Assembly: GCA_030390025.1 (NCBI GenBank)
Contig: CM059431.1
Coordinates: 127,040,001 to 127,104,000, forward strand
Source of the DNA: Squalus acanthias
Taxonomy: Eukaryota
Direction of reading: 5' to 3'
Length of the DNA: 64,000 nucleotides
Positions 7,991-62,161 of the stretch are shown here, piece by piece. Under the pieces are notes generated by a model. That model searched no databases, was not told the origin of the DNA, and was given only the letters and a program-made list of their open reading frames with translations. How positions within the stretch are numbered: the first letter of the stretch is position 1; every line of letters begins with the position of its first letter. The position numbers and the translations under genes were made by a program.

Positions 7991-8608
7991 AATTGTGTGT
8001 CAGCTCAGTCTATAACCTCATGGACTGGCACATTCCTCAATCCTCCATCTTCATTAAGCCAGGATGTCAGCCCAGATTCAATACACAGAGTATAAAAGCA
8101 TGAAAGGAACAACACGAGGCAAACTTTGGAATGGGGTACCAGGCTAGTGAAGCTACAACATAGGTTTATGCTAAACAGTAAGAGCAGCAGGCTGGACTTA
8201 GATCTAAGCGCACCCACAATTAATGGATCAGAGAAAAGCTCTCTCGCACTATCACATCCAGTCGAGAATGGTGGCAAGACAGCCAAGCAATTAACAGGAG
8301 GAGGAGGCTCCATGAATATCCTCAACCATGGTGGAGCCCAGCATATGAGAGCAAGGGACAAGGCTGAAATGTTTTCAAGCATTTTCAGTCAATCGTCCTG
8401 CGCCAGTCTACCCTCCCTCCGCTCTTCGCTCCTCCAAACAGACTTTCCAGCTGACTGCTTGGAGGCAAGGGCTATCCACTGAAGATGTGGCTCATGACAC
8501 CCTTGAGGAGGCCATGTCATGAGGCCCAGGAGAGATAGAATGAAAGCCACATTTCCAACAGATGCGCCATAGAGCAGACAATAGGCATGCTGAAAATGCA
8601 CTTCAGAT

Positions 8609-10249
8609 TGTAAGGGATTCTGACCCTGCGTGTCTCGCAGCCTGTGAGATTCACGCGGCTCTGTGCAGCCTGTATGTCAGTGCGGGTTTAGGCCTTGTTG
8701 CCTGTTCTGGTCTCCAGCCAGTCTGGGAGCACTAGGCACACCTGTGAGTGGTTCGAATCAGTCGCCCTTACGGTTCTAGACACTGGACTTAGATGCGAGA
8801 GCAGTAATGGAGATGAAACTCATGTAGACTCGGTTGAATGGTACGAAATGGAAAATCTTTATTGCATGATATTTAAGATTACGAAATACATGTCATAAGC
8901 ACAGATTAATGACAGTACAATCTTACAAGCAGTTATATAGCTGATCCTAGGGAAACGAGGAACGAACGACACACCGTAAATAGGGGCACACATTACAAGT
9001 ATCCTTAATACTTAAACCCTCCCCTATCAATATCTGTCCTAGCTAGATTCGTAGGATTTCGAGACTCATGCTCACCACTCGTGATAACTCGGAGAAATTC
9101 CGAATAGCTGATCGGATGTTTTTCACCGCAGCACCCACGTGTCGATCAGGAGGTCTCCTGGTCCCACTTGTTTACTTGCTTCTGCTCCGGCTAGCAGGCT
9201 GGACCGTCTGCTGTGATGAAGATCTGTGTTGGTTGGTTTAACAGGCACAGTCCGAATACAGCCCAGTCAATATCATCTTTGACGATCCGTTCTTGCAAGT
9301 TCAAAGAAGTCTTCCTGGCAAAGAAAACTTGGCTGTTCGACCTACAGGCACGGTCGGAATTTACTGACCGTGGCGATGAGTATGGTCTTCCTCTCTTCTC
9401 ATTTCATCTCATCTCATCTCATCTCATCTCGGGCCTTTGGTTCCGATGCCAGTTACCAACATAGGTCTTCGTTACGCGACACGAGGTAGATCCGAACGGA
9501 TCAGAAAGTTCAACAGTCTTTTTCAAAGAGGCACCAGGCAAGCAGACACAAGACTACGAGTCAAAAACACAGGAGCAGCCACGAGGTTACGAGTCGATCG
9601 GATAAGAGAATAAGAGAAAGATGGACGGTTGGAGCTTGTAATTATAGTACAAAATCTTCCGTTTCCCGCCCAACCTTAATGTCCTTTCTTTTGTTTGGGT
9701 TTGGCGCTCAAATGTCTTGTATGGGTGATCTCCGTTCTTAATGGGTTTCGGGGCTACTCGTAACTGTCTGAGTACCTGTTAATATTTCTCCCATTGTTAA
9801 ATCGGTCGGTGTTCTCCCTGGAGGGGTTTTGGGGCTTCCAAGTGTTTTGTATAACTACCTGCTAACGGCTCTCTCATCGTAGAGTCGTTGGAATTTTACA
9901 TATTAATGTCTTTTGGATGGGCCCTTGATTACTCGGTACAATAGCTTTCATTCGTACCTGGGAGACCGATTTCAGTATTTATGTGTATACTGCAAACCCA
10001 TAATGTCTCGTGTATTATCTTCACTGTGCTGAATCTTAATCGATCTTGCACAAATGTTTATTGGAACGCCATCTTGTCTGCCTGTCGAAAAGTCTAGAAT
10101 GTTCTGTCACGAGGTGCGGCGGCCATTTTACAGGCTGCTTGTGTCCACTTTGAGAAACCTGACAGCATTCTGCTGAAATAAAAGCTGTTTGAACGAGACT
10201 CTGTGTTTTCTCCTTATTAATAAAATCGCGATATATTGCGAATTCTACA
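8609..10249 (-). repeat. 3' LTR (1641 bp)
   Basis: Direct repeat of 20096-21726. Minus strand reads TGTAGAAT...CCCTTACA. AATAAA at 8863-8858; (ATCTC)n tract at ~9400-9430. Confidence 0.95.
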
Positions 10250-10261
10250 GTCCCTCCTGTT
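10250..10261 (-). promoter_or_regulatory. Polypurine tract
   Basis: Minus strand AACAGGAGGGAC immediately precedes the TG of the 3' LTR. Confidence 0.7.
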
Positions 10262-10700
10262 GATGCGAATAACTCCGCTTATCGTATCAAAAATCATAGT
10301 GGTGAGCAATATTATCTCGATTTCTCTCCGAATCCAGCAAATTAATCCCATACCTTTAACCTAAATAGGGTCTCTGTGTCGTCCTTATTTCCCAAGAAAA
10401 TTACATTTTATATCACCGTGGGCCTTTATTTGCCCTTAAACTTACACCACTTGTTTTCCTTCCCGGCGTAACCAGGCCGACGCCTCTCGTATCACCTGTA
10501 TATTCATCTCTTTATTCAGGGAAAGGAAAAACAAAACCCAAATCCAAACAATCATCTTTAACTACAACACCATCACCAAAATAATCAACACCAACTCTTA
10601 AACATGTCGAGTTCCAAACGTATTTACAGTCTTTGAAAATCATGATCGAGTACAAACTTCCGCGGCGCACGTGGCGAGCGGGAGTGACGCCATTTTCCGA

Positions 10701-13475
10701 TCACACGGTGCTTTCATCGTGCACGCGCACGTAACGTTCTCGCCACTCTCCCGTGTTTTCATGCTTGGTGAGGCATTTGTCTCTTTTACAATGTACGACC
10801 AATAGGTACACTACAATAAACACTTGACATACGACTAAAATGTGGGAGGCTATTCTGATCCATGAAGGCACTTCAATATTGGTGAACAGATTCCACCACG
10901 GTGGAACTACTATATCCAGAATGTCTGTTCCTATTTCGACAGTTTTCTGCTCTAATGTATAAAAATGTTTCTGTGACACCGCGACGGCTTTTAAAAGCTT
11001 GGTGAGGTGTTCAGGGAGAGGGGGAATGAGGTATCCGAAATGCGCGACGAATCGTTGCAAGTCGGTGAAATTCTCTTTTACTGTGAGATGAACAGTGGAT
11101 GGTTCAGGGATTGGGATAATTCGCTGTTGTGCTACTTGAACTTCCGCCCTGGGTTCAAAACAGAAACTGCTGTCACTCACCGGACACCGGCTACGGTTTC
11201 CATGCTGGTAGTGTTGCGCTGCAGTGGTAACACAATATGTTCCACCCCCGATGTATGCTACCTGCGGAGGCACATGATCTTGTGCCATTGCCTCCATGGT
11301 ACAATTCATGGACTTGGCGCCAGTCGTTCTGAACCCGCACTGTGGTGTTAAAAAGGCATTCAAGTGCTGGGGGCACAGTATTATGTGTGCTCCCCTGCCA
11401 CGACAACCAGAGAGATCTGTACCTGTCATCGTTTGCTCCCAGCGGATGACGTAAGGTGGAACCGCTGCATAACGAATGTGGGCTCCCCCCTGAATGACAA
11501 CAATGTTCTCTACCCGATACACCGGGGCGGGCTTTGCTGTGTCGCCCAAAACCGGCATGCGTAAAACTATACCCATAATGGTATGGTTTGATCGTCCGCA
11601 GTCCACGGGGACTGGGTATGCTTCTGAAGCTAGCCTGAGCTGGCACGGACTTAATGCGTTCTGAAAAGGGTGGAGCGCCCGCAGGTGTTTGTTACTTATA
11701 GAAACATAGAATCTAGGAGCAGGAGTAGGCCATTCGGCCCGTCGAGCCTGCTCCGCCATTCAATACAATCATGGCTGATCATCCAAATCCAGTACCCTGT
11801 CCCTGCTTTAATCCCCACAGTACACATATCCCACCCTACCCCCATAACCCCATGTATTTAATTCCCCCTAACATATCCCATCCTATCCCCATAACCCCAC
11901 ATATTTAATCCCCCCTAACACTAAGGGTCAATTTATCATAGCCAAATCAACCTAACCCACACATTTTTGGACTGTGGGAGGAAACCGGAGCACCCGGAGG
12001 AAACCCACGCAGACACGGGGAGAATGTGCAAACTCCACACAGACAGTCACCCGAGGTCAGATTCGAACCCGGGTCTCTGGCGCTGTGAGGCACCAGTGCT
12101 AACCACTATGCCACCGTGTTATCCAGGACGGGACCAAACCTTGTTTTAAATCCTCCAAATTACTGCGGCCCTCGCCCAGTAACCACGCCCCGTAAAGCAC
12201 GCACACCTCGTTCTGTGCAGCTTGATCGGATGCATTCCGATCTTCCCTAATCAGGGCATTTACCGTCTTTGCATGTTTCTCCAGCTCTGCTATAATTTCC
12301 TTTAAATGGAGAGTCATGGCTTGGTCCTCGTGTAAACCCGACCCTACCACTTTATTTTCATCTATTAGAATGTCTTTTAATTGCGTTTTTAGACCATTAA
12401 TCTGGGTCTGCAGCTCCACACTGTCTAGAGCGTTGACCACAGATGTACCCGTGTTAAAAGCAGTGAACGCATCGTTCACCAAACCCCTTCTTTGCCTCCC
12501 TACTTGATCCAAAACTTCCTGTGGTGCGGTGTACAAACTTGTTTTATCAATTTCTGCGAAATCGAATTCGTAAAATTGTCTGAACATCTTGGTCAACAGG
12601 ACCTGATACAACTGTTCCGTCTTTTTGGGGCACCACTCTGGTAACCGCACCTCGGTGAGATTTAAAATCACCGAGGCCACCGCGTAATGTACCCCCTGAA
12701 ATAGTATCTGGTCTGTGGGGACCAGTACCAAACCATTCCCGGGTCCCTTACTAGTTTTAGGGCACCCTTCTTCCTCAGCTAGAACCACCGGAATCGTGGG
12801 CGGGGCTTTGCGTGGGCGCGTAATCAGCTCAGTGGCATTTACCGGGATCGAAGAGTATGGGGCTCCGCACCCCCTGGTGCTTGCATCCCACCTCATCCCC
12901 TGTCCGTTATCCTGCCACTGATTAATGAAAAATATGGATATGCCTTTGGGGCAAGGGTATTTTGACCCCCACATGCATACATAAATTCCCTCGTCCGGTT
13001 CCCACCATTTGTCCCAACAGACTTTCACTTGTCCGTTTGTCCCCGTAATTGTCCGATGGGTATTATTACCCAGTCGTTCCCACTCGACCGACGAGTTCCT
13101 CATAGTTTTGCTCAGCTTTCGCAGCCACCACCATCGGCTCAATGGGACATTCCCACTACAAGTCAAACAAATCCGTTTGCCGACGGTGACGCTGATCCTG
13201 GGTGCGATGATCCTTACTTTGGGGCACATTAAAGAAGTCTCTTTGTAGGCAAACCCCGATGTGCTAGAATACTCCGTTGAGTTCGTTCCCAGCCATCCTG
13301 GCCACCTTCCCTTGTGGAAATAGGTGCTGGTCTCCTCTGCCTCCCGTCTTCCGGTCCCATCCACCGCGATGGGGGCCGTGTCCCCGGAACATCCAAACAC
13401 CACGACATCCTTGGTGCGGCCTCGATAGGCCAATCCACATCTGATTGCCACGAGCAATACTAGAATTCGTTCCAT
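10701..13475 (-). pseudogene. env: env: class I F-type fusion glycoprotein (~783 aa once the SINE is removed), interrupted by a SINE
   Basis: Signal peptide MERILVLLVAIRCGLA, N-glycosylation sequons, furin site RQRR|GLVNDAF (12497-12486), heptad region, Cys-rich ectodomain, and TM segment IASHILVVCQVFIVVYLLVV. ORFs 12099-13658 and 10701-11759 rejoin in frame as VPSWI-SNKH. Confidence 0.9.
11700..12118 (-). mobile_element. HE1-type tRNA-derived V-SINE inserted in env
   Basis: tRNA head CACGGTGGCATAGTGGTTAGCACTGG...GGGTTCGAATC; V-domain GTCTGTGTGGAGTTTGCACATTCTCCCCGTGTCTGCGTGGGTTTCC; CR1-like tail GGCCGAATGGCCTACTCCTGCTCC. Flanked by TTAT (11696-11699 and 12119-12122). Internal ~47-bp tandem duplication at ~11824-11917. 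Confidence 0.9.
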
Positions 13476-13761
13476 CCTTCCTTGGTTCCTGTGATCAGAT
13501 AGAATGAGGTAGCCAGCCTCGCAAGAGTCTCTGGCTTTTGTGAAGGGTGAGCGGGTCCCCTGACCTCGCCTCACGTAAACTTCAACGTTCGCTGAATAAA
13601 CTTTAACTAAACCTATCTTTAAAGCTCCCATCATTTTATCGTTTTCTGTTAAAAACACTACAATCTTAACCTTATTAAAACTATAAGCTTAACCTTGAAC
13701 TATGAACTTAAAACTTAAAACTTATTACTATACAGTGCCGCCCGTTCTCAGGGCGGCCCCT

Positions 13762-16700
13762 TTAAATTCTGAGAAGGCTGCTGCGAGCTCTTCCCGACGG
13801 TGGGAGGGCACTGACCCTTCCCTTTGATCTGCCGCAGCCTGTTGCTGCACTGATTCCTTCCTCTGATCTGCCGCAGCCTGTTGCTGCTGCGATGGGGCCG
13901 AGCTGTATCTGGGTTGCCTCAACCTTAAGTCTACGCCTTGGGGCAGTCTGGGGACATGACCACATCCTCCTGGGCTGGGGTTCTCTACTTGACCTACGGG
14001 GAGTTGCCATGGGCGGGGGTTCCGTGACTGACGGACCGGGTTCCGAGACTTCCATCGGGACGACCTGGGGTTCCACCACAGTCGCTGGCTCCGCCTCCGC
14101 TGACTCCGCCTCCCTAACCTCGGGGCTCGCAGTTTGTGGCTCCGCCCTGCTCGGCCCAGCAGGCGGCCCTTCACTCGTGATCTCTGCCTCCCCCGAGGAC
14201 GGGACGTTCAAAGCGGGCGGCTCTGTCTCTGGGGTCCTCACCGTCACTCCCTGTGCTCCCACAGCGGCTGGCCCCGCCTCCCCTAGCTCCTCCCTCCTGT
14301 CTTCGGGACCTGCAGCTTGTGTGTCCACCCTGTGTGGATCTCTATCTGCAGCCCGTATCCTCCCTATACCTAAAATGGGACCGTTCCCCAAAAACCACTC
14401 GTCTTCATCACTATCCTCATCTGACTCGAGTTCCCGGAATTCTCCCTCATCTGACTCCCAACCCCACAAAAATGCTTCATGATCTTCCAGGATGTCCCCT
14501 CCCCTGATGCAAGCTGCTTTGCCTGCCTGTGTGCCTTGTGGTCCTACCTGGGGCTGTGCTTCCCCACTGGCGGGGTTTACCCCTGTGGTTTTCCCTTGCG
14601 CACCTGGCTTGTACAGTTTGCATTGGTTTACGTGGAACCACTTAGTGCGCCGAGGTACTTTTACGGCGTATACCATGGGACTCGCCTTGTCTACAATGTT
14701 GTAGGGTCCCATATACAGTGGTTCCAGACTCCCTACTCTGGCGTAGTTTCTGACCATGACCTGGTCTCCTACTTCCCACTCCCGCGTTTTGCGGGGTTCC
14801 AGCAACAAGCGATTGCCCTGATGCTGCCTTCCCATGTTCCCAGCCGCCTGCTCATAAACCTGCTTCAGGCGCTCCAAGAGAGTCTGGGCGAACTTGTCCC
14901 TGCTTATCTCTTGTAGCTGACCCTCAGTGAGCACCGGCGCTAGCACATGGGTGGGGGTTCGCATGAGCCTCCCAGTCATCACCTCGTGCGGGGAGTACCC
15001 CGTACTTTTTGACTGACTGGCCCGGACCCCCATGAGGACTAAAGGCAGAACTTCCGCTCATTTTTGGGGCGAGTTCCTAGTCTCTTTCCTCAATTTCTCC
15101 TTCAGGGTCCGGTTCATGCGTTCAACAATCCCGGATGACTGGGGATTGTGTGCTACGTGCCACTTCCCTTCAATGCCCAAAAGCATGAGGGTGTTCTGCA
15201 TCACCTGGCCGGTGAAATGACTCCCTTGGTCTGACTCCACAAAACGGGGAAGTCCCCACCGCGAGAACACTTCCCGGACCAAGATTTTTGCTGTACCCAG
15301 TGCCGTAGCTGTTCGACAGGGGAAGGCTTCCACCCACTTGGAAAACACATCCACCAAGACGAGGCAGTATTTATAACCTCCCTGGGTGGTGGGCAGGGGT
15401 CCTATATAGTCGATCTGTATCGACTGCCATGGTCCCTCTACCCTTCTTACGTGTCCCATGGGCACCTTCCTTTTCTGGGGGTCTGGGTTGTTTGCAGCGC
15501 ACACAAGACAGTTTGCACAGAACTCGCGGACTTGTTCCCTGAGCCCTGGCCACCATCCCGCTTGCTCTACCCGTTGCCAGGTAACCTCGGGCCCGGGGTG
15601 CCCTGCCCCCGGTCCCTCGTGAGCCAACTGAAGGAATTCCCTCCTGTGCTGCTGCGGCACAACCCACTGCTCCTCGCGGAACAGCATGCCTTCCTTAACT
15701 GAGAGGGTTGCCGTACTGTACGGACCTTCTACCTGCCTCCCCTCAGCAATGGTTTTTAGGACTGCTTTTAGGGCGGGATCCTGGGTTTGGACGGTCTTAA
15801 GGTCTAGGGGCAATGCTACCCTGGTGTTCCCGGGATTCCCGTCCCTGCCTTGGATCGCTGCTATGGGTCTGGTCCCATAGGGGTCCCAGAAAATGCCGTT
15901 GCGGGCACCTTCCCTGGCTAGCGCATCCGCCTGCTGGTTGCCCTCCCCACGGGGCTCTGTGGAGGAGTGAGCTTTCACCTTATGGATGAAAATCTCTCCT
16001 TCCTCCCCTACTGCTGCTGCTAAGATCTTTTCCAGCAAGCGCTTCACCGTTAAAGGTCGCCCGTCCGCGGAGGTGTATCCACGGCGGGACCAAATGGCCA
16101 GGTATTCCGTACACGAATTGCAGGTGAACATACTGTCCGAGCAAATCGTGTATGGGGTTGGGAAAATGTCTGGGTGGGTAACAACGTACACCACGGCAGA
16201 CAGCTCAGCCTGCTGCGCGCTCATGGTGCTGGGGAGCTTGATCGCCAGGGCAAGGTTTGCCGCAGGGTCATAAACTCCACACCCCGTGAGTCGTTCGCCA
16301 GCAAATACTGTGCTAGACCCATCAACATAAATCTCGCGCCCAGTGGGATGTATCCCGGCCCGTAAACCTATGTTGACGTCCCACACCCCTTCCACCGAAC
16401 ACCGGTGGGCTGTACCGGGGTATACCAAATTGGCCGCAAGCCTGGGCTCGCAAAGACCTTTTACTCTAAGATCCAACTGGGAGAGAAGAAGGGTCCAGCG
16501 CGCAATGCGCACGCTGCTTACGGTCCCATCTTTAATCCTCCCATCTAGAAGCATCTTAGTTGGTGTGTGATGTGTGAGGAGAGTGATGGCAGAGAGCCCT
16601 GTGAAGATCGCTGATCTTTTCACAGCCCAATGCGTGGCTAAAAGGTGCCTTTCGCAATTGGAGAAACTTCTCTCCACATCCGTTAACACCCTGGATGAAT

Positions 16701-18282
16701 AGACAACCGGCCTCAGCTTGCCGTGACGCTCTTGGAGCAGCACAGTGCTCAAGCTGTCTCCGCTGGCAGCTACCTCCAGGAAAAACTCCTTCCCCCCATC
16801 TATGGCCCCTAAGGCTGGCGCGGTCTGCAGATCCCTTTTTAACTTCTCGAAGGCTGCTTGGCAGCCCTCGTCCCAAGACCACTCCACCCCCTTATGGAGG
16901 AGTCGGAGGAGCGGCACTGCTGTGGCCGCATAGTCTTCGATAAAGTCCCTGCAGTAACCGGTCAGTCCCAAGAAGGACCTCACACCCCTTATGTTGTTGG
17001 GAATCGGTAATTCTTGCACCGACTCCCTCCTCGCTTTGTCTATAGCTCTTTCCCCAGCGCGTATGGTCAGTCCCAGGAATTTTACTTCCCGCTGACCGAT
17101 ACGTGCTTTCTTAGGATTTATTTTAAAACCCTTTCTCGCTAGCAGCTCCAATAACTCGTCCAGTAGTGGTCCATGCTCCTCCCTTGAGTCCGTAAATAGG
17201 AGCAAATCATCCACGTACTGCACTATCTGATTGGGCTGACTAAACTCCTTTAAACTTCCTGCCATACACTGATGGAAAATACTGGGGCTATTGTGGAAAC
17301 CCTGTGGCAGACAGTTCCATGTGTACTGTTGTCCTTTGAAAGTAAAGGCAAACTTGTACTGGTCCTCTCGCCTCAGCGGGATGGACCAAAAACCGTTCGA
17401 GATATCCAGCACCGTGAACGTGGTCGCGGACGCTGGGATGCTCCCTATTAGGTCAGCAACTGCTGCTACCGTGGGCGCGCAGGCGGGAATGTTACTGTTA
17501 AGGACTCTGTAGTCCACCGTGGCTCTCCACGAATTATCCGGCTTCCTAACCGGCCATAATGGGGAGTTCACGTGTGTGGCTATCGGCCTCAACACGCCCT
17601 GCTGCACCAAGGAGGACATTGCTGTCTCCATATCGGGTTCTGCTTCTTTGGGGAAGTTATACTGCTTTTGGGGTCGGGTCATGGGGTCCCCATCTACGCT
17701 GACCTCAAACCCGATAACCCTCCCACAATCGTGCTTGTGGGTTGCTAACGCGTGCATATTATCTGACACGTACGTTTGCATGTCCGTTGGGACATCTGCG
17801 ACCATAAGCCTGAGGTCGTAGCCTCCGGATGGCTGTACAGTACACAGGACCCCTGTTTCTTCCTCCCCCGGAATCACTACTACCTCGCCTTTTTCACCCT
17901 TAGCCCCCCAGAGACAGTGATTTCTGAGGTCCACGAGGATCCCGTGTCCCGATAGAAGATCAGACCCGAGAATACCTCTTCCACCCCCCTCCTGCCATTC
18001 CATCAGTATACACTTCCACTTAAGGTGAAGTGCTCCCAAACGAATGGATAGCGGAAGGGAGAACGCGCCAGCCTGTTCTTTTCCTGTGAACCCGGCTAAC
18101 GTGAATGGGACCCTGGTAGATAGCGGCGAGTCAAAAGGGCTATCTGTATGGGTTATGGTGCAAGAAGCTCCCGTGTCCAACAAATAACTACCCCTCTGTT
18201 TCTCTACCTCCATCTCCACCAAAGGTCGCTTCCACGCATCATAGCTAAGCGGACACAGGTAGACGGGCTGCGCGGGTTCTAG
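13762..18282 (-). pseudogene. pol: pol: protease-RT-tether-RNase H-integrase, with one in-frame stop at 15058-15060
   Basis: PR LLDTGAS and ILGSDLL; RT LPQGFHNSP and YVDD; RNase H YVDGSS/AQQAEL/SDS/GNQQADALA; IN HHCC zinc finger, QIDYIGP, SDQGSHF, VERMNRTLK and GPY motif. ORFs 15058-18222 and 13762-15033 are in the same frame (SPQK*AEVLPLVLMG). Confidence 0.95.
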
Positions 18283-20091
18283 TCATGGGGTACTATTAGA
18301 CGGTCCTGCGGCACCTACGGGGCCGGTTGCGACCGCCACCTTTCCATGTGCACTCAATAGATTGCGCATGGCTCCTAACACTACTTCGAGGTCGTCGGGA
18401 GGGGTGGGTGCATTAGCTTCCCTAGCCGGGACAGGCGCCTGGGCTCGGACCACGGGATTTTTATCCTTGGAATCTTTCCAAGGGTTCCTGCAATGCTTGC
18501 GCCAGTGCCCTGTCTTCCCACACCCGTAACAAGCATTACTTGCCTGTGGGGCGCGATTACCCTCCTGATGCCACTCTCTTTGATACGGGGCTGCGGGTCG
18601 TACCTCATGTACTTTTCCCTTAAGGGGACGTGTTGCCATACCCCTTATATTGCGATATCCTAACGTGAGTCGATTCAAGACCGACTCTTCCGTAATGTTG
18701 GGGTCATTGGGATCAAACCATGCTTTTGCCTGCTCTCTGACGGCTGGTAAACTGTTGGCTATTATGCACCTAAGCCAATGAGCTAAACCGGCGCCTTCCA
18801 TATCTTCGCGCTCGGGCGCACCTAGACAGCTGCGCTCATATACTGGCCACAGCCTGTCGGCAAAAACCTTCGGGGGTTCTCCCTCCATCTGCACTGTCTG
18901 TCCCACTCTAGCAAACGGACCTTCATCGTCCGCCCCCAACACTTCCAGGACCTCATTCTTTAATGCCTCATAAGTCTTGGTTCCCCTCTTGCTCTCGCCC
19001 GAGAGACACTGAAGGATTGTACTGCCTAACGAAAACAACAGCATTTTTGCTGTTTCCCCATCATCGCAGCCGTTAATGGCTGCGGTTTGCTCAACTTCTC
19101 TGAAATGTACGGAAGGGTCGTCTGCCTCGGTTAGCTTCCGTACGTGATTTATCATAACTCTCAGCTGATGTGAACTGTGAGGCAATACAAGCTGTCCGAG
19201 GAGATCCCCTGGTTCTTCCCCACCGTTTCTGTTTGGGCCCCTTTTAATACCCGTTACTGGATACAACGGTCCCTTTTCCACTTCTTTCTCAATGGGCTCT
19301 TTCATTTCTTCCATTGCTTCCTCCCTAACCCAGGTTTCCGAATAGCTGGGTGGCGCGGAGGGCGCAGTGGCTACTACTTCCTCTGCTTTACTTGGTGGGG
19401 ATTTCTTAAACTTCTCACTTACTAGCGGCTGGTGTGCTGACGGACTGATAAGGCTCACCATGCCGTGCGCTTTGTTCACGGCCTTTTTGAGGTGCTCTAT
19501 CTCTTTTTGGCAGGCGCTATGATCGGCTCCCTGAAACTTATCCTCAAGGGCCAACTTATATGCCGCCCTAACCCTCGTTAAGCTCTCTTCCTGAGTTCTT
19601 ATCTGGGCAGCTTGGCGGGCACATCTTTCCTTTAACCTGCTCTCATTTAACTTTGCCTCAGTGACCTGGCACTCGAGGTAATCTATCCTTGTTTTATGGT
19701 GACTGGAGATTTCCTGGCGTTCTTGGTGCAACGCACTTAAATTCCTAATGAGCATTTCCCCTCCAGAAACCTTCTCATCCATTTCTCCCTCTAAATGACT
19801 GATTCGAGCTGTTAGCGCTGTAATGGTCTGGTTTGAAATCTGGACCTGCCTTTTGTAACACATTAGCCAGACTGCTTTCTCGAGTGTCTTTTTATGTTCT
19901 TTACTATCTGTCCACCTTTCGGCTGCCTCTAGCGGGCTTTTATCCGCTAACAATTCACTTATCCATTTCTTAGTTAAATTAACCTTTCCGAACACATAAT
20001 CTGCTATCTTTTCCTGCATAACATTTCGTACAGTCATTCCAAAGTCTAACACACTACCCTCTCGCTGCCAGTGTCCTGCCGCGGTCGCCAT
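18283..20091 (-). CDS. gag: gag polyprotein, 602 aa
   Basis: Uninterrupted ORF directly after the PBS. Coiled-coil-like N-terminal half, PSAPPSY motif, and CCHC knuckle CYGCGKTGHWRKHC. Confidence 0.92.
   Translation of the reverse strand: MATAAGHWQREGSVLDFGMTVRNVMQEKIADYVFGKVNLTKKWISELLADKSPLEAAERWTDSKEHKKTLEKAVWLMCYKRQVQISNQTITALTARISHLEGEMDEKVSGGEMLIRNLSALHQERQEISSHHKTRIDYLECQVTEAKLNESRLKERCARQAAQIRTQEESLTRVRAAYKLALEDKFQGADHSACQKEIEHLKKAVNKAHGMVSLISPSAHQPLVSEKFKKSPPSKAEEVVATAPSAPPSYSETWVREEAMEEMKEPIEKEVEKGPLYPVTGIKRGPNRNGGEEPGDLLGQLVLPHSSHQLRVMINHVRKLTEADDPSVHFREVEQTAAINGCDDGETAKMLLFSLGSTILQCLSGESKRGTKTYEALKNEVLEVLGADDEGPFARVGQTVQMEGEPPKVFADRLWPVYERSCLGAPEREDMEGAGLAHWLRCIIANSLPAVREQAKAWFDPNDPNITEESVLNRLTLGYRNIRGMATRPLKGKVHEVRPAAPYQREWHQEGNRAPQASNACYGCGKTGHWRKHCRNPWKDSKDKNPVVRAQAPVPAREANAPTPPDDLEVVLGAMRNLLSAHGKVAVATGPVGAAGPSNSTP
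20073..20090 (-). promoter_or_regulatory. Primer-binding site complementary to tRNA-Arg(TCG)
   Basis: Plus strand GTCCTGCCGCGGTCGCCA equals the recalled 3' 18 nt of vertebrate tRNA-Arg-TCG. It lies 5 nt from the LTR end. Confidence 0.85.
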
Positions 20092-20095
20092 TTTC

Positions 20096-21726
20096 TGTAA
20101 GGGATTCTGACCCTGCGTGTCTCGCAGCCTGTGAGATTCACGCGGCTCTGTGCAGCCTGTATGTCAGTGCGGGTTTAGGCCTTGTTGCCTGTTCTGGTCT
20201 CCAGCCAGTCTGGGAGCACTAGACACACCTGTGAGTGGTTCGAATCACTCGCCCTTACGGTTCTAGACACTGGACTTAGATGCGAGAGCAGTAATGGAGA
20301 TGAAACTCATTTGAATGGTACGAAATGGAAAATCTTTATTGCATGATATTTAAGATTACGAAATACATGTCATAAGCACAGATTAATGACAGTACAATCT
20401 TACAAGCAGTTATATAGCTGATCCTAGGGAAACGAGGAACGAACGACACACCGTAAATAGGGGCACACATTACAAGTATCCTTAATACTTAAACCCTCCC
20501 CTATCAATATCTGTCCTAGCTAGATTCGTAGGATTTCGAGACTCATGCTCACCACTCGTGATAACTCGGAGAAATTCCGAATAGCTGATCGGATGTTTTT
20601 CACCGCAGCACCCACGTGTCGATCAGGAGGTCTCCTGGTCCCACTTGTTTACTTGCTTCTGCTCCAGCTAGCAGGCTGGACCGTCTGCTGTGATGAAGAT
20701 CTGTGTTGGTTGGTTTAACAGGCACAGTCCGAATACAGCCCAGTCAATATCATCTTTGACGATCCGTTCTTGCAAGTTCAAAGAAGTCTTCCTGGCAAAG
20801 AAAACTTGGCTGTTCGACCTACAGGCACGGTCGGAATTTACTGACCGTGGCGATGAGTATGGTCTTCCTCTCTTCTCATTTCATCTCATCTCATCTCATC
20901 TCATCTCGGGCCTTTGGTTCCGATGCCAGTTACCAACATAGGTCTTCGTTACGCGACACGAGGTAGATCCGAACGGATCAGAAAGTTCAACAGTCTTTTT
21001 CAAAGAGGCACCAGGCAAGCAGGCACAAGACTACGAGTCAAAAACACAGGAGCAGCCACGAGGTTACGAGTCGATCGGATAAGAGAATAAGAGAAAGATG
21101 GACGGTTGGAGCTTGTAATTATAGTACAAAATCTTCCGTTTCCCGCCCAACCTTAATGTCCTTTCTTTTGTTTGGGTTTGGCGCTGAAATGTCTTGTATG
21201 GGTGATCTCCGTTCTTAATGGGTTTCGGGGCTACTCGTAACTGTCTGAGTACCTGTTAATATTTCTCCCATTGTTAAATCGGTCGGTGTTCTCCCTGGAG
21301 GGGTTTTGGGGCTTCCAAGTGTTTTGTATAACTACCTGCTAACGGCTCTCTCATCGTAGAGTCGTTGGGATTTTACATATTAATGTCTTTTGGATGGGCC
21401 CTTGATTACTCGGTACAATAGCTTTCATTCGTACCTGGGAGACCGATTTCAGTATTTATGTGTATACTGCAAACCCATAATGTCTCGTGTATTATCTTCA
21501 CTGTGCTGAATCTTAATCGATCTTGCACAAATGTTTATTGGAACGCCATCTTGTCTGCCTGTCGAAAAGTCTAGAATGTTCTGTCACGAGGTGCGGCGGC
21601 CATTTTACAGGCTGCTTGTGTCCACTTTGAGAAACCTGACAGCATTCTGCTGAAATAAAAGCTGTTTGAACGAGACTCTGTGTTTTCTCCTTATTAATAA
21701 AATCGCGATATATTGCGAATTCTACA
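20096..21726 (-). repeat. 5' LTR (1631 bp)
   Basis: Near-identical to 8609-10249 but lacks GTAGACTCGG. Followed on the minus strand by the PBS. Confidence 0.95.
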
Positions 21727-22899
21727 AGATGCCTTCACAGATCTGGAGGAACCCTTCAGAACGCACCAGCCAGGGTCTCCAGAATCATTGTGGTCTGCTG
21801 CACCCTGCACAACATAGCACAGCAGAAGGATTAGCGCTACCTAAGGACCAAGGCACTGAGCGCACAGCCTCTTCAGAGGAGGAGGAGGAGCAGGAGGAGC
21901 ATCAGCTTGAAGACGAGGAGGAGGAGCACGAGGAACCTGCGGCCCAGATCCCACCAGCACCCGAGCACATTGCTGCCTGGGAGGCAGGGATGGCCTCATC
22001 ATGGCCAAATTTACTTAACTTTACGCAGTACACCCATATGGCTGCCACATGCTGCGCCAGGTTGGCACCACCCCACATCAACACCTAAAGCATCGCTACA
22101 ATGACCAAGCCATTCCTTTCACACTGACCACCATTGCTGGAGGTAAAGTTATGTCTCACCATTCACTCCAACTCACTAAGCCACTTCCAAAGGTGCACAC
22201 AAATTTGTCCATGTCCAGAAAGTGGTGAAAATAAATACTTTTATCTGTGACATCACAGTAACGGAAACTTTACAGAAACATTTAATAAAACACCCGAGTG
22301 GCTACCCTTGTGAATCAACTTCTATTTCATCTTTCTCTTACGCGTGCTTCTATGAGGTGCTACTCCTGTGGCTTCAGCAGAGGTAGAGGCAGCCTGCTCA
22401 CTTCCCTGCCGTGACTGCATAGACGCTTTTGGCGGACATCCTCTGGGTTTTGGTGCCTGTGATGGCCCCGCCAAAGTCTCCTCCTCCTACGACTGTGCAG
22501 GGGCAGACTCGGCCATAGTGATCTGAGGAGGCATCTGAGGCTCTAACTGAGGGGGCGGGGTTGGGGGGGGGGCAACGCAGGGGAAGTGTAAGTGCTTTGA
22601 GAGGAGCCTCCACTTGCATGTCCCCTCTCATCATCATCCCTCTCGTGGGCCACCCGCACTTCCTGCTAGCAAGGAGCTGGAGAGCGCCTTGCTGCACAGC
22701 AATGGGGCCATGAGGATCCACGTCTACATTGACATCATTCCTAGAGAGGGTGTCTATCTGTCTCTGCCATCTATTCTCCATAGAGACCATGTGTTCCTGT
22801 GAGTGGAGCATTAGCTGCTCCAAGCAGGTGACCATCCTATCCATGGAAGAGCCTACAGTCGCCATCTCCTCGACACAGTGGTGCTCATGTTGGAGATGG

Positions 22900-45473: not shown

Positions 45474-48400
45474 TCACAGAGTCATAGAGTCATAGAGTTA
45501 TACAGCACAGAAAGAGGCCCTTCGGCCCATCGTGTCTACGCCGGCCATCAAGCCCTGTCTATTCTAATCCCATTTTCCAGCACTTGGTCCGTAGCCTTGT
45601 ATGCTATGGCATTTCAAGTGCTCATCTAAATGCTTCTTGAATGTTGTGAGGGTTCCTGCCTCTACCACCCTTTCAAGCAGTGAGTTCCAGGTTTCAACCA
45701 CCCTCTGGGTGAAAAAGTTTTTCCTCAAATCCCCTCTAAACCTCTTGCCCCTTACCTTGAAACTATGCCCCCAGGTTATTGACCCCTCTACTAAGGGGAA
45801 AAGTTCCTTTCTATCTACCCTATCTATGCCCCTCATAATTTTGTACACCTCAATCAGGTCCCCCCTCAGCCTTCTCTGCTCTAAGGAAAACAACCCCAGC
45901 CTGTCCAGTCTCTCTTCATAGCTGAAGTGCTCCAGCCCAGGTAACATCCTGGTGAATCTCCTCTGCACCCTCTCCAATGCAATCACATCCTTCCTATAGT
46001 GTGGCGACCAGAACTGCACACAGTATTCCAGTTATGGCCTAACTAGCATTTTGTACAGCTCCATCATAACCTCCCTGCTCTTATATTCTATGTCTCGGCT
46101 AATGAAGGCAAGTATCCCATATGCCTTTTTAACCACCTTATCTACCTGTCCTGCTGCCTTCAGGGATCTATGTACATGCACACCAAGGTCCCTCTGATCC
46201 TCTGTCCTTCCTAGGATCCTACCATTCATTGTGTATTCCCTTGCCTTGTTAGTCCTCACAAAATGCATCACCTCACACTTTTCAGGGTTAAATTCTGCCC
46301 ATCTAACCAACCTGTCTATAACGTCCTGTAGTCTAAGGCTTCCCTCCTCGCTATTTACCACTCCACAAATTTTCGTGTCATCTGCGAACTTACTGATCAT
46401 ACCTCCTACATTCATATCTAAATCATTAATGTACACTACAAACAGCAGAGGACCCAGCACCGATCCCTGCAGTACACCACTGGACACAGGCGTCCTGTCA
46501 CAAAAACAACCTACGAACATCACCCTCTGCCTCCTGCCACTAAGCCAATTTTGGATCCAATGTGCCAAATTGCCCTGGATCCCATGGGCTCTTACCTTCT
46601 TGACCAGTCTTCCATGCGGGACTTTCTCAAAAGCCTTACTGAAGTCCATGTAGCCTACATCAAATGCACTACCCTCATCCACACACCTAGTCGCCCCCTC
46701 GAAAAATTCAATCAAATTGGTTAGACATGATCTCCCCCTGACAAAGCCATGCTGACTATCCTAGATTAATCCTTGCCTCTCCAAGTGGAGACTAATTCTG
46801 TCCCTCAGAATTTTTTCCAATAATTTCCCTACCACTGATGTTAGGCTCACTGGCCTGTAATTCCCTGGTTTATCCCTACTACCCTTCTTGAATAATGGTA
46901 CTACGTTAGCTGTCCTCCAGTCCTCTGGCAACTCCCCTGTGGCCAGAGAGGTTCTGAAAATTTGTGTCAGAGCCCCTGCAATCTCCTCCCTTGCCTCACA
47001 CAGCAGCATGGGATACATCTCGTCTGGGCCTAGGGGTTTATCCACTTTTAAGCCCGCTAAAACCGTTAGTAACTCCTCCCTCTCAATACTAATTTGTTCA
47101 AGTATATCACAATCCCCCTGCCTGATTTCTATGCCTACATCGTCCTTCTCCATAGTGAACACAGATGCAAAATATTCATTTAAAACCTCACCCACATCTT
47201 CCGGCTCTACACACAGATTGCCACATTGGTCCCTAATGGGCCCTACTCTTTCCCTGGTTATCCTCTTGTCCTTAATATACTTATAAAACAACTTGGGATT
47301 TTCCTTTATTTTGCCCACCAGTGTTTTTTCATGCCCCCTCTTCGCTCTCCTAATTTCTTTTTTAAGTACCCCCCTGCACTTTCTATACTCCTCTAGGGCT
47401 TCCACTGTTTTTAGTCCTTTGTATCTGCCAACAGCCTCCCTTTTTTTCCTAATCCATTCTTGTATATCTATAGACATCCAGGGTTCACTGGGCTTATTGG
47501 TCCCACCCTTGACCTTTACGGGAACATGTTGGTGTTGTACTCTCTCTATTTCCTTTCTGAAAGACTCCCACTGCTCTGATGTGGATTTTCCTACAAGTAG
47601 CTGATCCCAGTCCACTTTGGCCAGATCCTGCCTTATCATATTAAAATCGCCCTTCCCCCAATTTAGAATCTTTATTTCTGGTCCATCTTTGTCCTCTTCC
47701 ATGACTACCTTAAATCTCACTGAATTATGGTCACTGTCACCAAAATGCTCTCCTACTGACACTTCTACCACTTGCCTAGAACTAGGTCCAGTACCGCCCC
47801 CTCTCTTGCAGGACTTTCTACATGCTGGCTCAAAAAGCTCTCCTGGATGCACTTTAAGAATTCCGCACCCTCTAAGCCTTTCACACACTGACTATCCCAA
47901 TTAATAATGGGGAAGTTGAAATCCCCTACTATTATTACCCGATTACCCTATTATTTCTACACTTCTCTGAGATTTGCCTACATATCTGTTCCTCTATCTC
48001 CCCCTGACTGTTTGGGGGCCTATAGTGCACTCCCAGCAAAGTGCTTGCCCCCTTTTTGTTTTTAAGTTCTACCCATATGGCCTCATTAGAGGAACCTGCT
48101 CAGATATCATCCCTCCTTACAGCAGTAATTGACTCCTTGATTAATATTGTGACACCCCCTCCTCTTTTACAACTCCCTCTCTCTTGCCTGAAGATTCTAT
48201 ACCCCGGAATATTGAGCTGCCGGTCCTGCCCCTCCCTCAACCATGTCTCTGTGATAGCAATAATATCATACTCCCATGTGTTCATCAACACCTTCAATTC
48301 ATCTGCCTTACTCGCAAGACTCCTTGCATTAAAATAAATACCATCCAGCCTTGCCATACTCCCTTGTGCCATTACATATTTGCTCTGCCTTCCAGACTGA

Positions 48401-50450: not shown

Positions 50451-50817
50451 CCACTTCACATAGGCCCAATCGACAAGCTACCTCGGCTGCATGTAAATGA
50501 GGCCTGCGTATTAAATATGGCAGGATACGATAGCACAGTGGTTATATTATCAGGCAAGTACTCGTGAACCTGGACGACTAACCTCAGAGAATGTGAGTTT
50601 AAATCCTGCCATGCCAGCTTGAATATTTGAATTTATTTTTGAACACGAAGTGAATCAAGGGATTTGGGGATAGGGCGGGAAAGTGGAGTTGAGGTAGAAG
50701 ATGAGCCATGATCTTATTGAATGGTGGAGCAGGCTCGAGGAGATGTATGGCTTACTCCTGCTCCTATTCAAAAGAAAAATATTTGCCTTGCAGAAACCAT
50801 TTCAAGCTTTTGCTATT

Positions 50818-59620: not shown

Positions 59621-62161
59621 AACTACCTCACACAGCGTTGACTCAATGCAGATGTCTCTCTTTCTCTCTCTCCGAATCTATCTCTCTCTCAGAACGAGTG
59701 GTGCAAAAATGTCTACCACAGAGAAAGACAGGAAGAGGCCCCCTTTAAATAGCACCCCCCCCAGCCCCACAGCGACTGGGGAGCGTTCCAGTCTTCCGGT
59801 CGTTTGTTGCACCAGGCCGAAAGGATGGGGGCGCCACTCAATTTCCGCTCCAGGGTGCCACAAGGGAGTTGCACCCTCGTATGACGTCAAGATCTGCGTG
59901 CGCAGGAGATCGGGGCGGTAAAGTTTAGCGCCGCCGCAAACTGTCTAGTTAATTTCGCGAGTGGCGCAAACATCGCTGCGCCCGGGCGCTAGTTGCTTTG
60001 CGCCCCATTAGCGCCCTCTTAATGTGCAACCAACTGAATTTTTCCCCCTATACCTCTATTTATGAAGCCCAGGATTCCGTAAGCCTTTTTAACTGCTTTC
60101 TCAACCTGCCCTGCCACCTTCAACGATTTGTGCACACATACCCCCAGGTCTCTCTGTTCGTGCACCTCCTTCAGGATTGTACCATTTAGTTTAATGTCTT
60201 CTCCTCACTCTTTCTACCAAAATGTATCACTTTTCACTTATCTACGTTAATTTCACCTGCTACGTGTCTGCCCATTTCAAAAGCCTGTCCGTCTTCCTGA
60301 AGTCTCTCACTCTCCTCCTCACTGTTCACTATACGTCCAAGTTTTGTGTCATCTGCAAATTTTGAAATTATGCCCTGTACAACCATGTCCAAGTCATTAA
60401 TATATATCAAGAAAAGCAGTGGTCCTAGAACCAACCGCTGGGGAACACCACTGTATACCTTCCTCCAGTCTGAAAAACAACCGTTCACCACTATTCTCTA
60501 TTTCCTAACACTTAGCTAATTCCATATCCAAGCTGCTGCTGTCCTTTTTATTCCATGAGCTTCAACTTTGCTGGCCAGCCTATTATGTGGCACTTGTTGA
60601 ACGCCTTTTGGAAATCCATGTACACTATGTCAACTGCATTACCCTCATCAACCATCTCTTTACCTCATCAAAGAACTCAATCAAGTTAGTTAAACATGAT
60701 TTGCCTTTAACACATCTGTGCTGGCTTTCCTTAATTAATCCGCACCTATCTAAGTGACTGTTAATTTTGTCCCTGGTTACTGTTTCTAAAAGCTTCCCCA
60801 CTATCGAGGTCAAACTGACTGGCCTGTAGTTGCTGGGTTTATCTTTACACCCTTTTTTGATCAATGGTGTAACATTTGCAATTCTCCAGTCCTCTGGCAC
60901 CACCCCCATATCTAAGGAGGATTGGAATATTATGGCCAGTACCTTCACGATTTTCTCCCTCAATTCCCTCAGCATCCAAGGATGCATCCCATCCGCTCCT
61001 GGTGATTTATCTACTTTAATTACCACCAGTCTTTCTAATACCTCCTCTTTATCAATTTTTATCCTATCAAGTATCTCCACTACCTCCTCCTTCACTATGT
61101 CTATGGCAGCATCCTCTTCCTTGGTGTTGACAGATGCAAAGTACTCATTTAGTACCTCAGCCTTACCCTCTGCCTCCATGCATAGGTCTCCTTTTTGGTC
61201 CCTAATCGGCCCCACTCCTTCGCTTATTACCCTTTTACTATTTATATGCCTATAGAAGACTTTTGGGTTACCTTTTATGTTGGCTGCCATTGTATTCTCA
61301 TACCCTTTCTTTACCCCTCTTATTTTCTTTTTCACTTCTCCTCTGACCTTTCCATATATAGCCTGATTCTCAGATGTATTTGCAACCTGACATCTGTCAT
61401 ACGCGCTCTTTTTCTGCTTCATCATATTCTCCATTTCTTTCGTCATCCAGGATGCCCTGACTTTTGTTGCCCTGCCTTTCTCCCTAGTGGGAATGTACCT
61501 CAACTCTACCTGACTATTTCCTCCTTAAAGGCAGCCCATTGTTCCATTACAGTTTTGCCTGCCAATCTTTGATTCCAGTTTACCCGGGCCAGATCCGTTC
61601 TCATCCCACTGAAATTGGCCTTCCCCCAGTTAAACATTTTTATTCTAGATTGCTCCCTGTCCTTTTCCATAGCTAATCTAAACATTATGAGATTATGATC
61701 ACTGTTCCCTAAATGTTCACCTATTGACACTTGCTCCACTTGACCTATCTCATTCCCCAGAACCAGATCCAGCAATGCCTCTTCCCTCGTCGGGCCAGAA
61801 ACATATTGATCAAAAAAGTTCTCCTGAACACACTTCAGAAATTCTTCCCCTTCTCTGCCTTTAACACTATTAAGATCCCAGTCTATATTAGGATAGTTGA
61901 AGTCCCTCATTATTCCTACTCTATATTTCTTGCACCACTCTGTAATTTCTCTGCAAGTTTGCTCCTCCATATCTTTCCCACTATTTGGTGGTCTATAGAG
62001 TATACCCATAGTGTAATGGCACCTATATTATTTCTTAATGAAGAAAGATTCAGAAAATATTACAATTATTATCTTTTCTGGATTGGATTGCTGACACTCA
62101 TAAGGCTACATAAATCTGTCTGAAATCCTTTGGCTGTATTATATAGATCTAGGTCATGAAC

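Follow-up and report, generated by a model that had tools for sequence, protein, structure and literature searches.

An endogenous provirus of Squalus acanthias carries a gag gene that ends in TGA-CTAG, with pol continuing in the same frame, and the Gag-Pol protein of its family is very probably made by programmed opal readthrough, driven mainly by the bases next to the stop. The element lies on the minus strand of a 64,000-nucleotide stretch (GenBank assembly GCA_030390025.1, contig CM059431.1, positions 127,040,001 to 127,104,000), which is called the window here and within which all coordinates are counted. A preliminary description of this DNA had proposed that Pol arises by programmed opal readthrough, and the frame, the stop, its context, and its conservation all agree with that proposal; readthrough itself, its rate, and the leading part of the local bases are inferred.

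On the minus strand, positions 18291-18274 read ACC CCA TGA CTA GAA CCC, just as first described (the strand was not given there). Upstream of the TGA the frame is open for 626 codons from stop to stop, or 602 from the ATG at 20091, and downstream it stays open for 1074 codons, through the protease, the reverse transcriptase (RT), the tether, RNase H, and most of the integrase. Codons 19-22 past the stop encode the RPLV strand of the protease and codon 36 marks the catalytic DTG; the 20 open codons into the protease noted earlier hold for this first strand. Stops close the other two frames upstream and downstream of the junction alike, and within 600 nt a slippery heptamer occurs only at 18139, about 140 nt downstream. 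A frameshift, already excluded in the preliminary description, was therefore rejected, the two genes being separated by a single in-frame stop. Such a UGA, followed by CUA or CGG and in frame with a long downstream open reading frame (ORF), belongs to type II as defined in a 2026 review (PMC13517186). The full heptamer TGACTAG accounts for 6 of the 2409 TGA trimers on both strands of the window and for one of the 113 on the element’s coding strand, that one being the junction. CTA followed by G makes up 10 of the 2107 gag-pol codons (about 0.5%), and the contexts differ at the three further stops that end ORFs in the element.

Both the stop and its context are kept among relatives, as judged from the ends of Gag proteins and from variants in related copies. 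The three Gag homologs (53, 46, and 35% identity) all end 12-13 residues past a conserved V/I/M-A-x-T-G motif, compared to 12 here, in a comparison of protein ends only. For the DNA, contigs from four of the 24 runs listed, carrying four organism codes, were aligned to 18030-18530, and the 40 best-supported of 70 variant rows were read by eye. No RNA run is on record among the 24. Among these 40 rows, no variant falls at 18279-18285 in any of the four runs; other copies were where the preliminary description had suggested checking TGACTAG, and no sense codon is seen there. Changes private to this copy (18152, 18452, 18475) appear in the same rows at or near full depth, so a private nonsense change would be expected to appear in the same way. 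At least five contigs (records 4, 12, 13, 14, and 29) bridge the stop with at least 31 nt on each side. In all four runs, a G>T row at 18287 changes the codon before the stop to CAA, a 5' context that favors readthrough. The same codon precedes the stop in Venezuelan equine encephalitis virus and tobacco mosaic virus (PMC13517186). Groups of contigs with loose ends leave the alignment at 18285, 18286, and 18287 (runs X3 and X12), which suggests that other families with unalignable gag ends keep the stop, the stop itself rather than the CTAG being what is read from them. Loose ends at 18251 in three runs (X6, X12, and X13) likewise suggest that the stretch between the stop and the protease start outlasts its flanks.

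These observations bear on the idea that gag and pol were once fused and that a nonsense mutation produced the TGA, an idea now largely refuted and very improbable. In its favor, this copy is damaged elsewhere, including by another TGA; one relative (P0007) is fused, at least as a gene model; and 10 of the 24 consensus sequences of lokiretroviruses carry the label of a fused ORF (PMC7947760). However, the homologous Gags end at the same place, and the best 40 of the 70 variant rows hold private changes but no sense codon at the stop. A search of 7348 longer candidates, a weak one, found no fused form of this Gag with Pol, and the junction is spanned by only one of 29 matches, an unrelated protease. 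Among loci with DNA, searches gave no close relative, the best reaching 37% and 35%. The premature stop in the integrase (15060-15058) provides an internal control: it differs in context and is absent from the closest Pol homologs, which are open at that place. By these sequence comparisons the gag stop is judged not to be a lesion, in line with what had been claimed for it.

In the proposed mechanism, this class III fish retrovirus family would make Gag-Pro-Pol by readthrough of the gag UGA. Most ribosomes would stop there and release Gag, while the CUAG on the 3' side, together with the CAA in front in many copies, would weaken termination. A few percent of the ribosomes would instead decode the UGA as an amino acid and continue translating the protease, RT, RNase H, and integrase in the same frame. 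The CCHC knuckle and the start of the protease are separated by a spacer that holds the stop, so the inserted residue would be cut away from the enzymes. Published reporters point to a basal rate of 1-2% for the motif alone: UGA-CUA by itself gave 1.5% readthrough (PMC4132726), and UGACUAG gave at least about 1.3%, with structure needed only conditionally (PMC13517186).

Several points weigh against this mechanism. A basal rate of 1-2% is below the 2.5-12% reported for Moloney murine leukemia virus (MoMLV) (PMC13517186), and the flanks of the gag UGA of Tca2 did not direct readthrough in yeast (PMC2194720). Seven nucleotides without listed variants are not significant alone at the observed variant density, and there may be a minority subfamily (up to about one-third of the depth) with a change inside the motif, which would be compatible with the best 40 of the 70 rows. 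The coelacanth gene model P0007, from the RT group of this element, gives Gag and Pol as a single uninterrupted protein. Folding of 25 windows around the junction turned up no stimulatory structure (best z -2.4); a 151-nt stretch gave z +0.99, which is not significant, and folding the downstream 100 nt, a check proposed in the preliminary description, gave nothing significant. The downstream stem-loop, a conditional feature of type II sites, was not found in the local windows folded, with no search made for pseudoknots or distant pairings. As a separate observation, P0007 has Gln-Gly-Cys-Gln at its Gag-Pol junction (residues ~225-245), a pattern that is also seen after the TAG in two other loci (L010 and L018).

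The folding results also bear on the possibility that readthrough is real and CUAG is not its main signal, the bases being kept as part of a protease cleavage-region peptide and the efficiency coming from a longer-range RNA element. This is unlikely, though not negligibly so. The conserved block of about 35 nt extends well beyond CUAG, 160-nt windows give z values of -1.5 to -2.4, and alphavirus UGA-CUA sites have conditional downstream stem-loops (PMC13517186). But CTA is the rarest of the six leucine codons in this gag-pol (23 of 186), windows of 50-130 nt are no more stable than shuffled sequences (best z -1.2), and CTA is used at all seven lokiretrovirus junctions that were read.

It is improbable, too, that Pol is made without decoding the stop at all, from a spliced mRNA, from an internal promoter, or by reinitiation like that of Tca2. 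Foamy viruses express Pol from a spliced mRNA, and the great length of the long terminal repeats (LTRs) and the foamy-like integrase of the present element would fit a spliced or internally started Pol. The AG within CTAG makes a weak acceptor, its tract being 55% pyrimidine and a further AG lying 14 nt upstream; the AG at 18246 is better, with 70% pyrimidine, and ranks among the top 6 of 386 YAG sites. Tca2 is a precedent for Pol without stop decoding (PMC2194720). However, the first methionine of pol is codon 24, past the RPLV strand, and a start there would remove the first strand of the protease. No joint or loose end occurs at 18279 or 18246 among the listed contig rows, a weak point against splicing, and gag and pol in one frame with a single stop would be needless under splicing or an internal start.

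The retrovirus that is proposed to use opal readthrough can be classified by its RT, for which a tree was built from 38 rows picked from 134 to represent each group, with the names of unnamed loci being inferred. The RT falls inside the retrovirus clade, apart from Ty3/gypsy (100/96; a quick tree of all 134 rows agrees at 86), and outside the class I gamma/epsilon clade (100/99). It groups with amphibian and coelacanth elements (87/82) and stands in an unresolved fork with snakehead-like (L001) and ERV-L-like (L020-type) rows, again by inferred names and in a tree without foamy or class II RTs. On its RT the element is tentatively placed in class III, or clade Huo, within the snakehead-retrovirus grade, a placement in a grade only and not a statement of monophyly. 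This grade includes snakehead retrovirus (SnRV), ERV-L, and ERV-S (PMC6001957). A gammaretrovirus or epsilonretrovirus was rejected, the RT being outside the class I clade and the junction not being a UAG-G (type III) one.

A lokiretrovirus was the first guess, from the env motifs and the dual RNase H, and it was rejected on RT motifs and the tree. The RT motif here is LPQGFHNSP, compared to CPFGY-NSP or xPFGYIN in lokiretroviruses; read by eye, it differs from all 24 lokiretrovirus RTs. The only lokiretrovirus-type row in the tree (P0039, assigned by motif) lies outside the retrovirus clade that holds the element (100/96). The two nevertheless share an in-frame TGA-CTA separating gag from protease, a similar order of env motifs (by eye), and the dual RNase H. 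The lokiretrovirus junctions were read by eye from 24 consensus elements in a published supplement (Dataset S1 of PMC7947760). All seven readable stop-separated junctions have TGA-CTA in the frame of the protease leader, followed by G in Ofa, Cne, Pyo, and Sau and by A in Bsp, Dcl, and Lro; the Bsp consensus slips frame further on, and in Tfu the corresponding position has an ambiguous residue and then Leu-Ser. Besides the 10 sequences called fused, which is a matter of label only, 6 have no readable junction. Going by these labels, two modes of Pol expression, stop-separated and fused, would occur within the lokiretroviruses, unremarked by the authors in the available text (PMC7947760). Readthrough, stop codons, and frameshifts are not mentioned in the main text of that paper, nor did a term search find them in the available text of the Odin paper. 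The 2026 review does not mention lokiretroviruses in its available portion (PMC13517186), and lokiretroviruses and readthrough were not found together in the literature searched.

In-frame stops between gag and pol are ordinary in retroviruses. Out of 34 retroviral loci fetched, 4 had no junction and were left out; in-frame gag-stop-pol was found in 21 of the remaining 30 (several of the 21 are duplicates), and 9 were broken or slipped. The stops in these 21 loci are TAG in 16 and TGA in 5, with no TGA-CTA. The preliminary description had set the junction against gammaretroviruses, which do use UAG plus a pseudoknot, but the proper comparison is with class III or snakehead-like, fish, and frog retroviruses, where gag usually ends at an in-frame stop and UGA has been recorded before. 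The 2026 review lists a gag UGA in SSSV (UGAAGA), ZFERV (UGACGA), and RMEV (UGAAGU), with UAGGGC in SnRV (PMC13517186). UGACUA is named there only for alphaviruses and Plautia stali intestine virus, and no retrovirus with a UGA-CUA junction appears in the portion available (PMC13517186). Because the review gives UGA with other contexts and XtERV-S, a Xenopus class III endogenous retrovirus (ERV), has TGA, the type of gag stop is known and the CUA(G) context apparently is not. No description of a retrovirus with a UGA-CUAG junction was found in the mainly open literature searched; most subscription journals, Repbase, and ERV sequence supplements (e.g., PMC10435555) lie outside that search, and an earlier mention is possible. 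When viral contigs were scanned for TGA-CTA-R preceding a protease motif, at least 120 loci matched, of which 2 were retroviral (both of the murine leukemia virus [MuLV] type, with the letters out of frame) and the rest chance. MuLV-type genomes (L004-L008, near 1965-2255) have the letters TGACTAG at the end of gag, with TAG rather than TGA in frame.

It is slightly more likely than not that UGA-CUA(G) is an unrecognized third readthrough route to retroviral Pol, free of a pseudoknot and used by two deeply separate fish lineages, this class III family and a large part of the lokiretroviruses, although this broader proposal is much less secure than readthrough at the present junction. Lokiretroviruses are the sister group of all retroviruses (PMC7947760). 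If the proposal is true, the route arose at least twice, or is very old, each time borrowing the host’s leaky-stop grammar, and the TGA-CTA junctions would supply a missing piece of lokiretrovirus biology, namely how Pol is expressed. Experimental proof of retroviral readthrough is confined to gammaretroviruses (UAG plus a pseudoknot), and the cis-elements of fish retroviruses are called unclear (PMC13517186). A UGA-CUAG junction without structure would be a short, directly testable signal and would tie retroviral recoding to a vertebrate cellular motif. There is a warning for annotation as well, since such a stop would not be pseudogenizing and filters for intact ORFs may miscount these elements. 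The general picture is unchanged: in-frame gag-stop-pol is common, and only the CUA(G) context is unusual.

The element as a whole is a Retroviridae endogenous provirus, with the domain order PR-RT-tether-RNase H-IN and a dual RNase H in a Pfam profile search; its features are listed in the table. It is young but defective. The two LTRs differ by six substitutions and one 10-nt indel (1625 of 1631 positions identical), and because of the stop in the integrase and the short interspersed nuclear element (SINE) in env this copy would be unable to make full Pol itself. While the long LTRs (1.6 kb) are near-identical, the sequence between them has already acquired a nonsense change and a SINE. Gag has no Pfam match, and its best match is a skate gene model (52%). 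The primer binding site overlaps the first gag ATG, which lies 4 nt past the 5' LTR (20073-20095). Two homologs share the residues that start from this ATG, and a second methionine, at residue 25, is invariant in all four Gags, which leaves two candidate starts for gag. The Pol tail after the integrase (13765-14600, minus strand) is unusually long at about 280 aa, acidic, and proline-rich, with short repeats near its end.

Features of the provirus and its gag-pol junction within the window
Feature	Position	Strand	Remarks
Provirus	8609-21726	minus	13.1 kb
5' LTR	20096-21726	minus	1631 nt, TG...CA ends
Primer binding site (putative)	20073-20090	minus	TGG start, 5 nt past LTR; overlaps first gag ATG
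gag	18286-20091	minus	602 aa; coiled-coil N-terminal half, capsid-like region, one CCHC knuckle
gag stop TGA	18283-18285	minus	In frame with pol; proposed readthrough site; homologous Gags end here
UGA-CUAG context	18279-18285	minus	Beier-Grimm type II; CTAG at 18282-18279; 5' codon CCA here, CAA in many other copies
Block from stop to protease start	18251-18285	minus	~35 nt; alignable in diverged relatives whose flanks are not
Aspartic protease	17950-18234	minus	Pfam RVP E 0.0027, gag-asp_proteas E 0.025, both under cut-off
RT core (YVDD)	17062-17550	minus	RVT_1 E 3e-36
Tether (first RNase H-like domain)	16477-16875	minus	RT_RNaseH_2 and RT_RNaseH matches
Second RNase H domain	15904-16335	minus	RNase_H E 1e-19
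Integrase and C-terminal tail	13765-15660	minus	Stop-interrupted; Integrase_H2C2, rve, and SH3-type C-terminal matches
Premature integrase stop	15058-15060	minus	TGA then G; lesion, internal control
env 5' part	12126-13688	minus	Ig-like stretch, furin-type RQRR site, helical region (motifs by eye)
SINE-like insertion splitting env	11715-12125	minus	tRNA-derived; ends approximate, ~410 nt
env 3' part with membrane anchor	10701-11714	minus	Viral fusion glycoprotein look-alikes, weak recognition
Polypurine tract	10250-10260	minus	Short
3' LTR	8609-10249	minus	1641 nt
Target site duplication	8605-8608 and 21727-21730		4 bp

The env (10701-13688, minus strand) shows an order of motifs like that of lokiretrovirus env (GPxxG-VL, furin site, hydrophobic stretch, L-x-G-x-VP-S-W), standing beside a class III pol, and its N-terminal Ig-like stretch contains DEGIYVC. 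No Pfam match to the Mononegavirales fusion protein (PF00523) was found. Its structural look-alikes are viral fusion glycoproteins at low recognition, with none for the 5' part, and the model’s predicted local distance difference test score (pLDDT) of 38.5 is too low for use. The insertion that splits env presumably has the A and B boxes of a SINE, and we take it to resemble a shark SINE family. It contains an internal 47-nt tandem pair and a tail like that of a long interspersed nuclear element (LINE); only one 69-nt piece of it recurs within the window (50697-50765), and no target duplication was found around it. Elsewhere in the window, strongly skewed stretches at 45500-47900 and 60600-62100 (minus strand) hold ORFs of 170-380 codons; they are probably LINE fragments and gave no match to the provirus Gag or Pol. 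ARAGORN found no tRNA gene.

Among known systems, snakehead retrovirus offers the best RT match of a named-virus type, 43% to a locus (L001) whose name is inferred and whose UAG-GGC junction equals that given for SnRV (PMC13517186). The two share an in-frame gag-stop-pol, a dual RNase H, and a position outside the gamma/epsilon clade. They differ at the junction, UAG-GGC there and UGA-CUAG here, and in the separate amphibian and coelacanth group to which the present RT belongs; Gag and env are barely alignable to that locus (E 0.007 and 0.4). SnRV-like ERVs are known in the elephant shark (PMC4422223). XtERV-S also has gag and pol in one frame with a TGA between them, for which suppression has been proposed, but its Gag is ERV-L-like, with GR boxes, and its env is of class I (PMC8278194), and it is compared here by the stop alone and not by the bases that follow. 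The fish and frog retroviruses SSSV, ZFERV, and RMEV have UGA where gag meets pro, with readthrough putative there too (PMC13517186); they are epsilon-related, and a locus with UGA-AGA (L011) sits in the class I clade. MoMLV (type III) does the same job, making Gag-Pol in frame through stop suppression, with UAG-G and a pseudoknot (PMC13517186), neither of which was found here. The heptamer itself, UGA CUA G, is identical at the opal sites of nsP3/4 in two alphaviruses, o’nyong-nyong virus and chikungunya virus, and in four mammalian genes (PMC4132726). Unlike in those cases, no extended stem-loop is predicted here, and the motif would set the ratio of Gag to Gag-Pol in a retrovirus.

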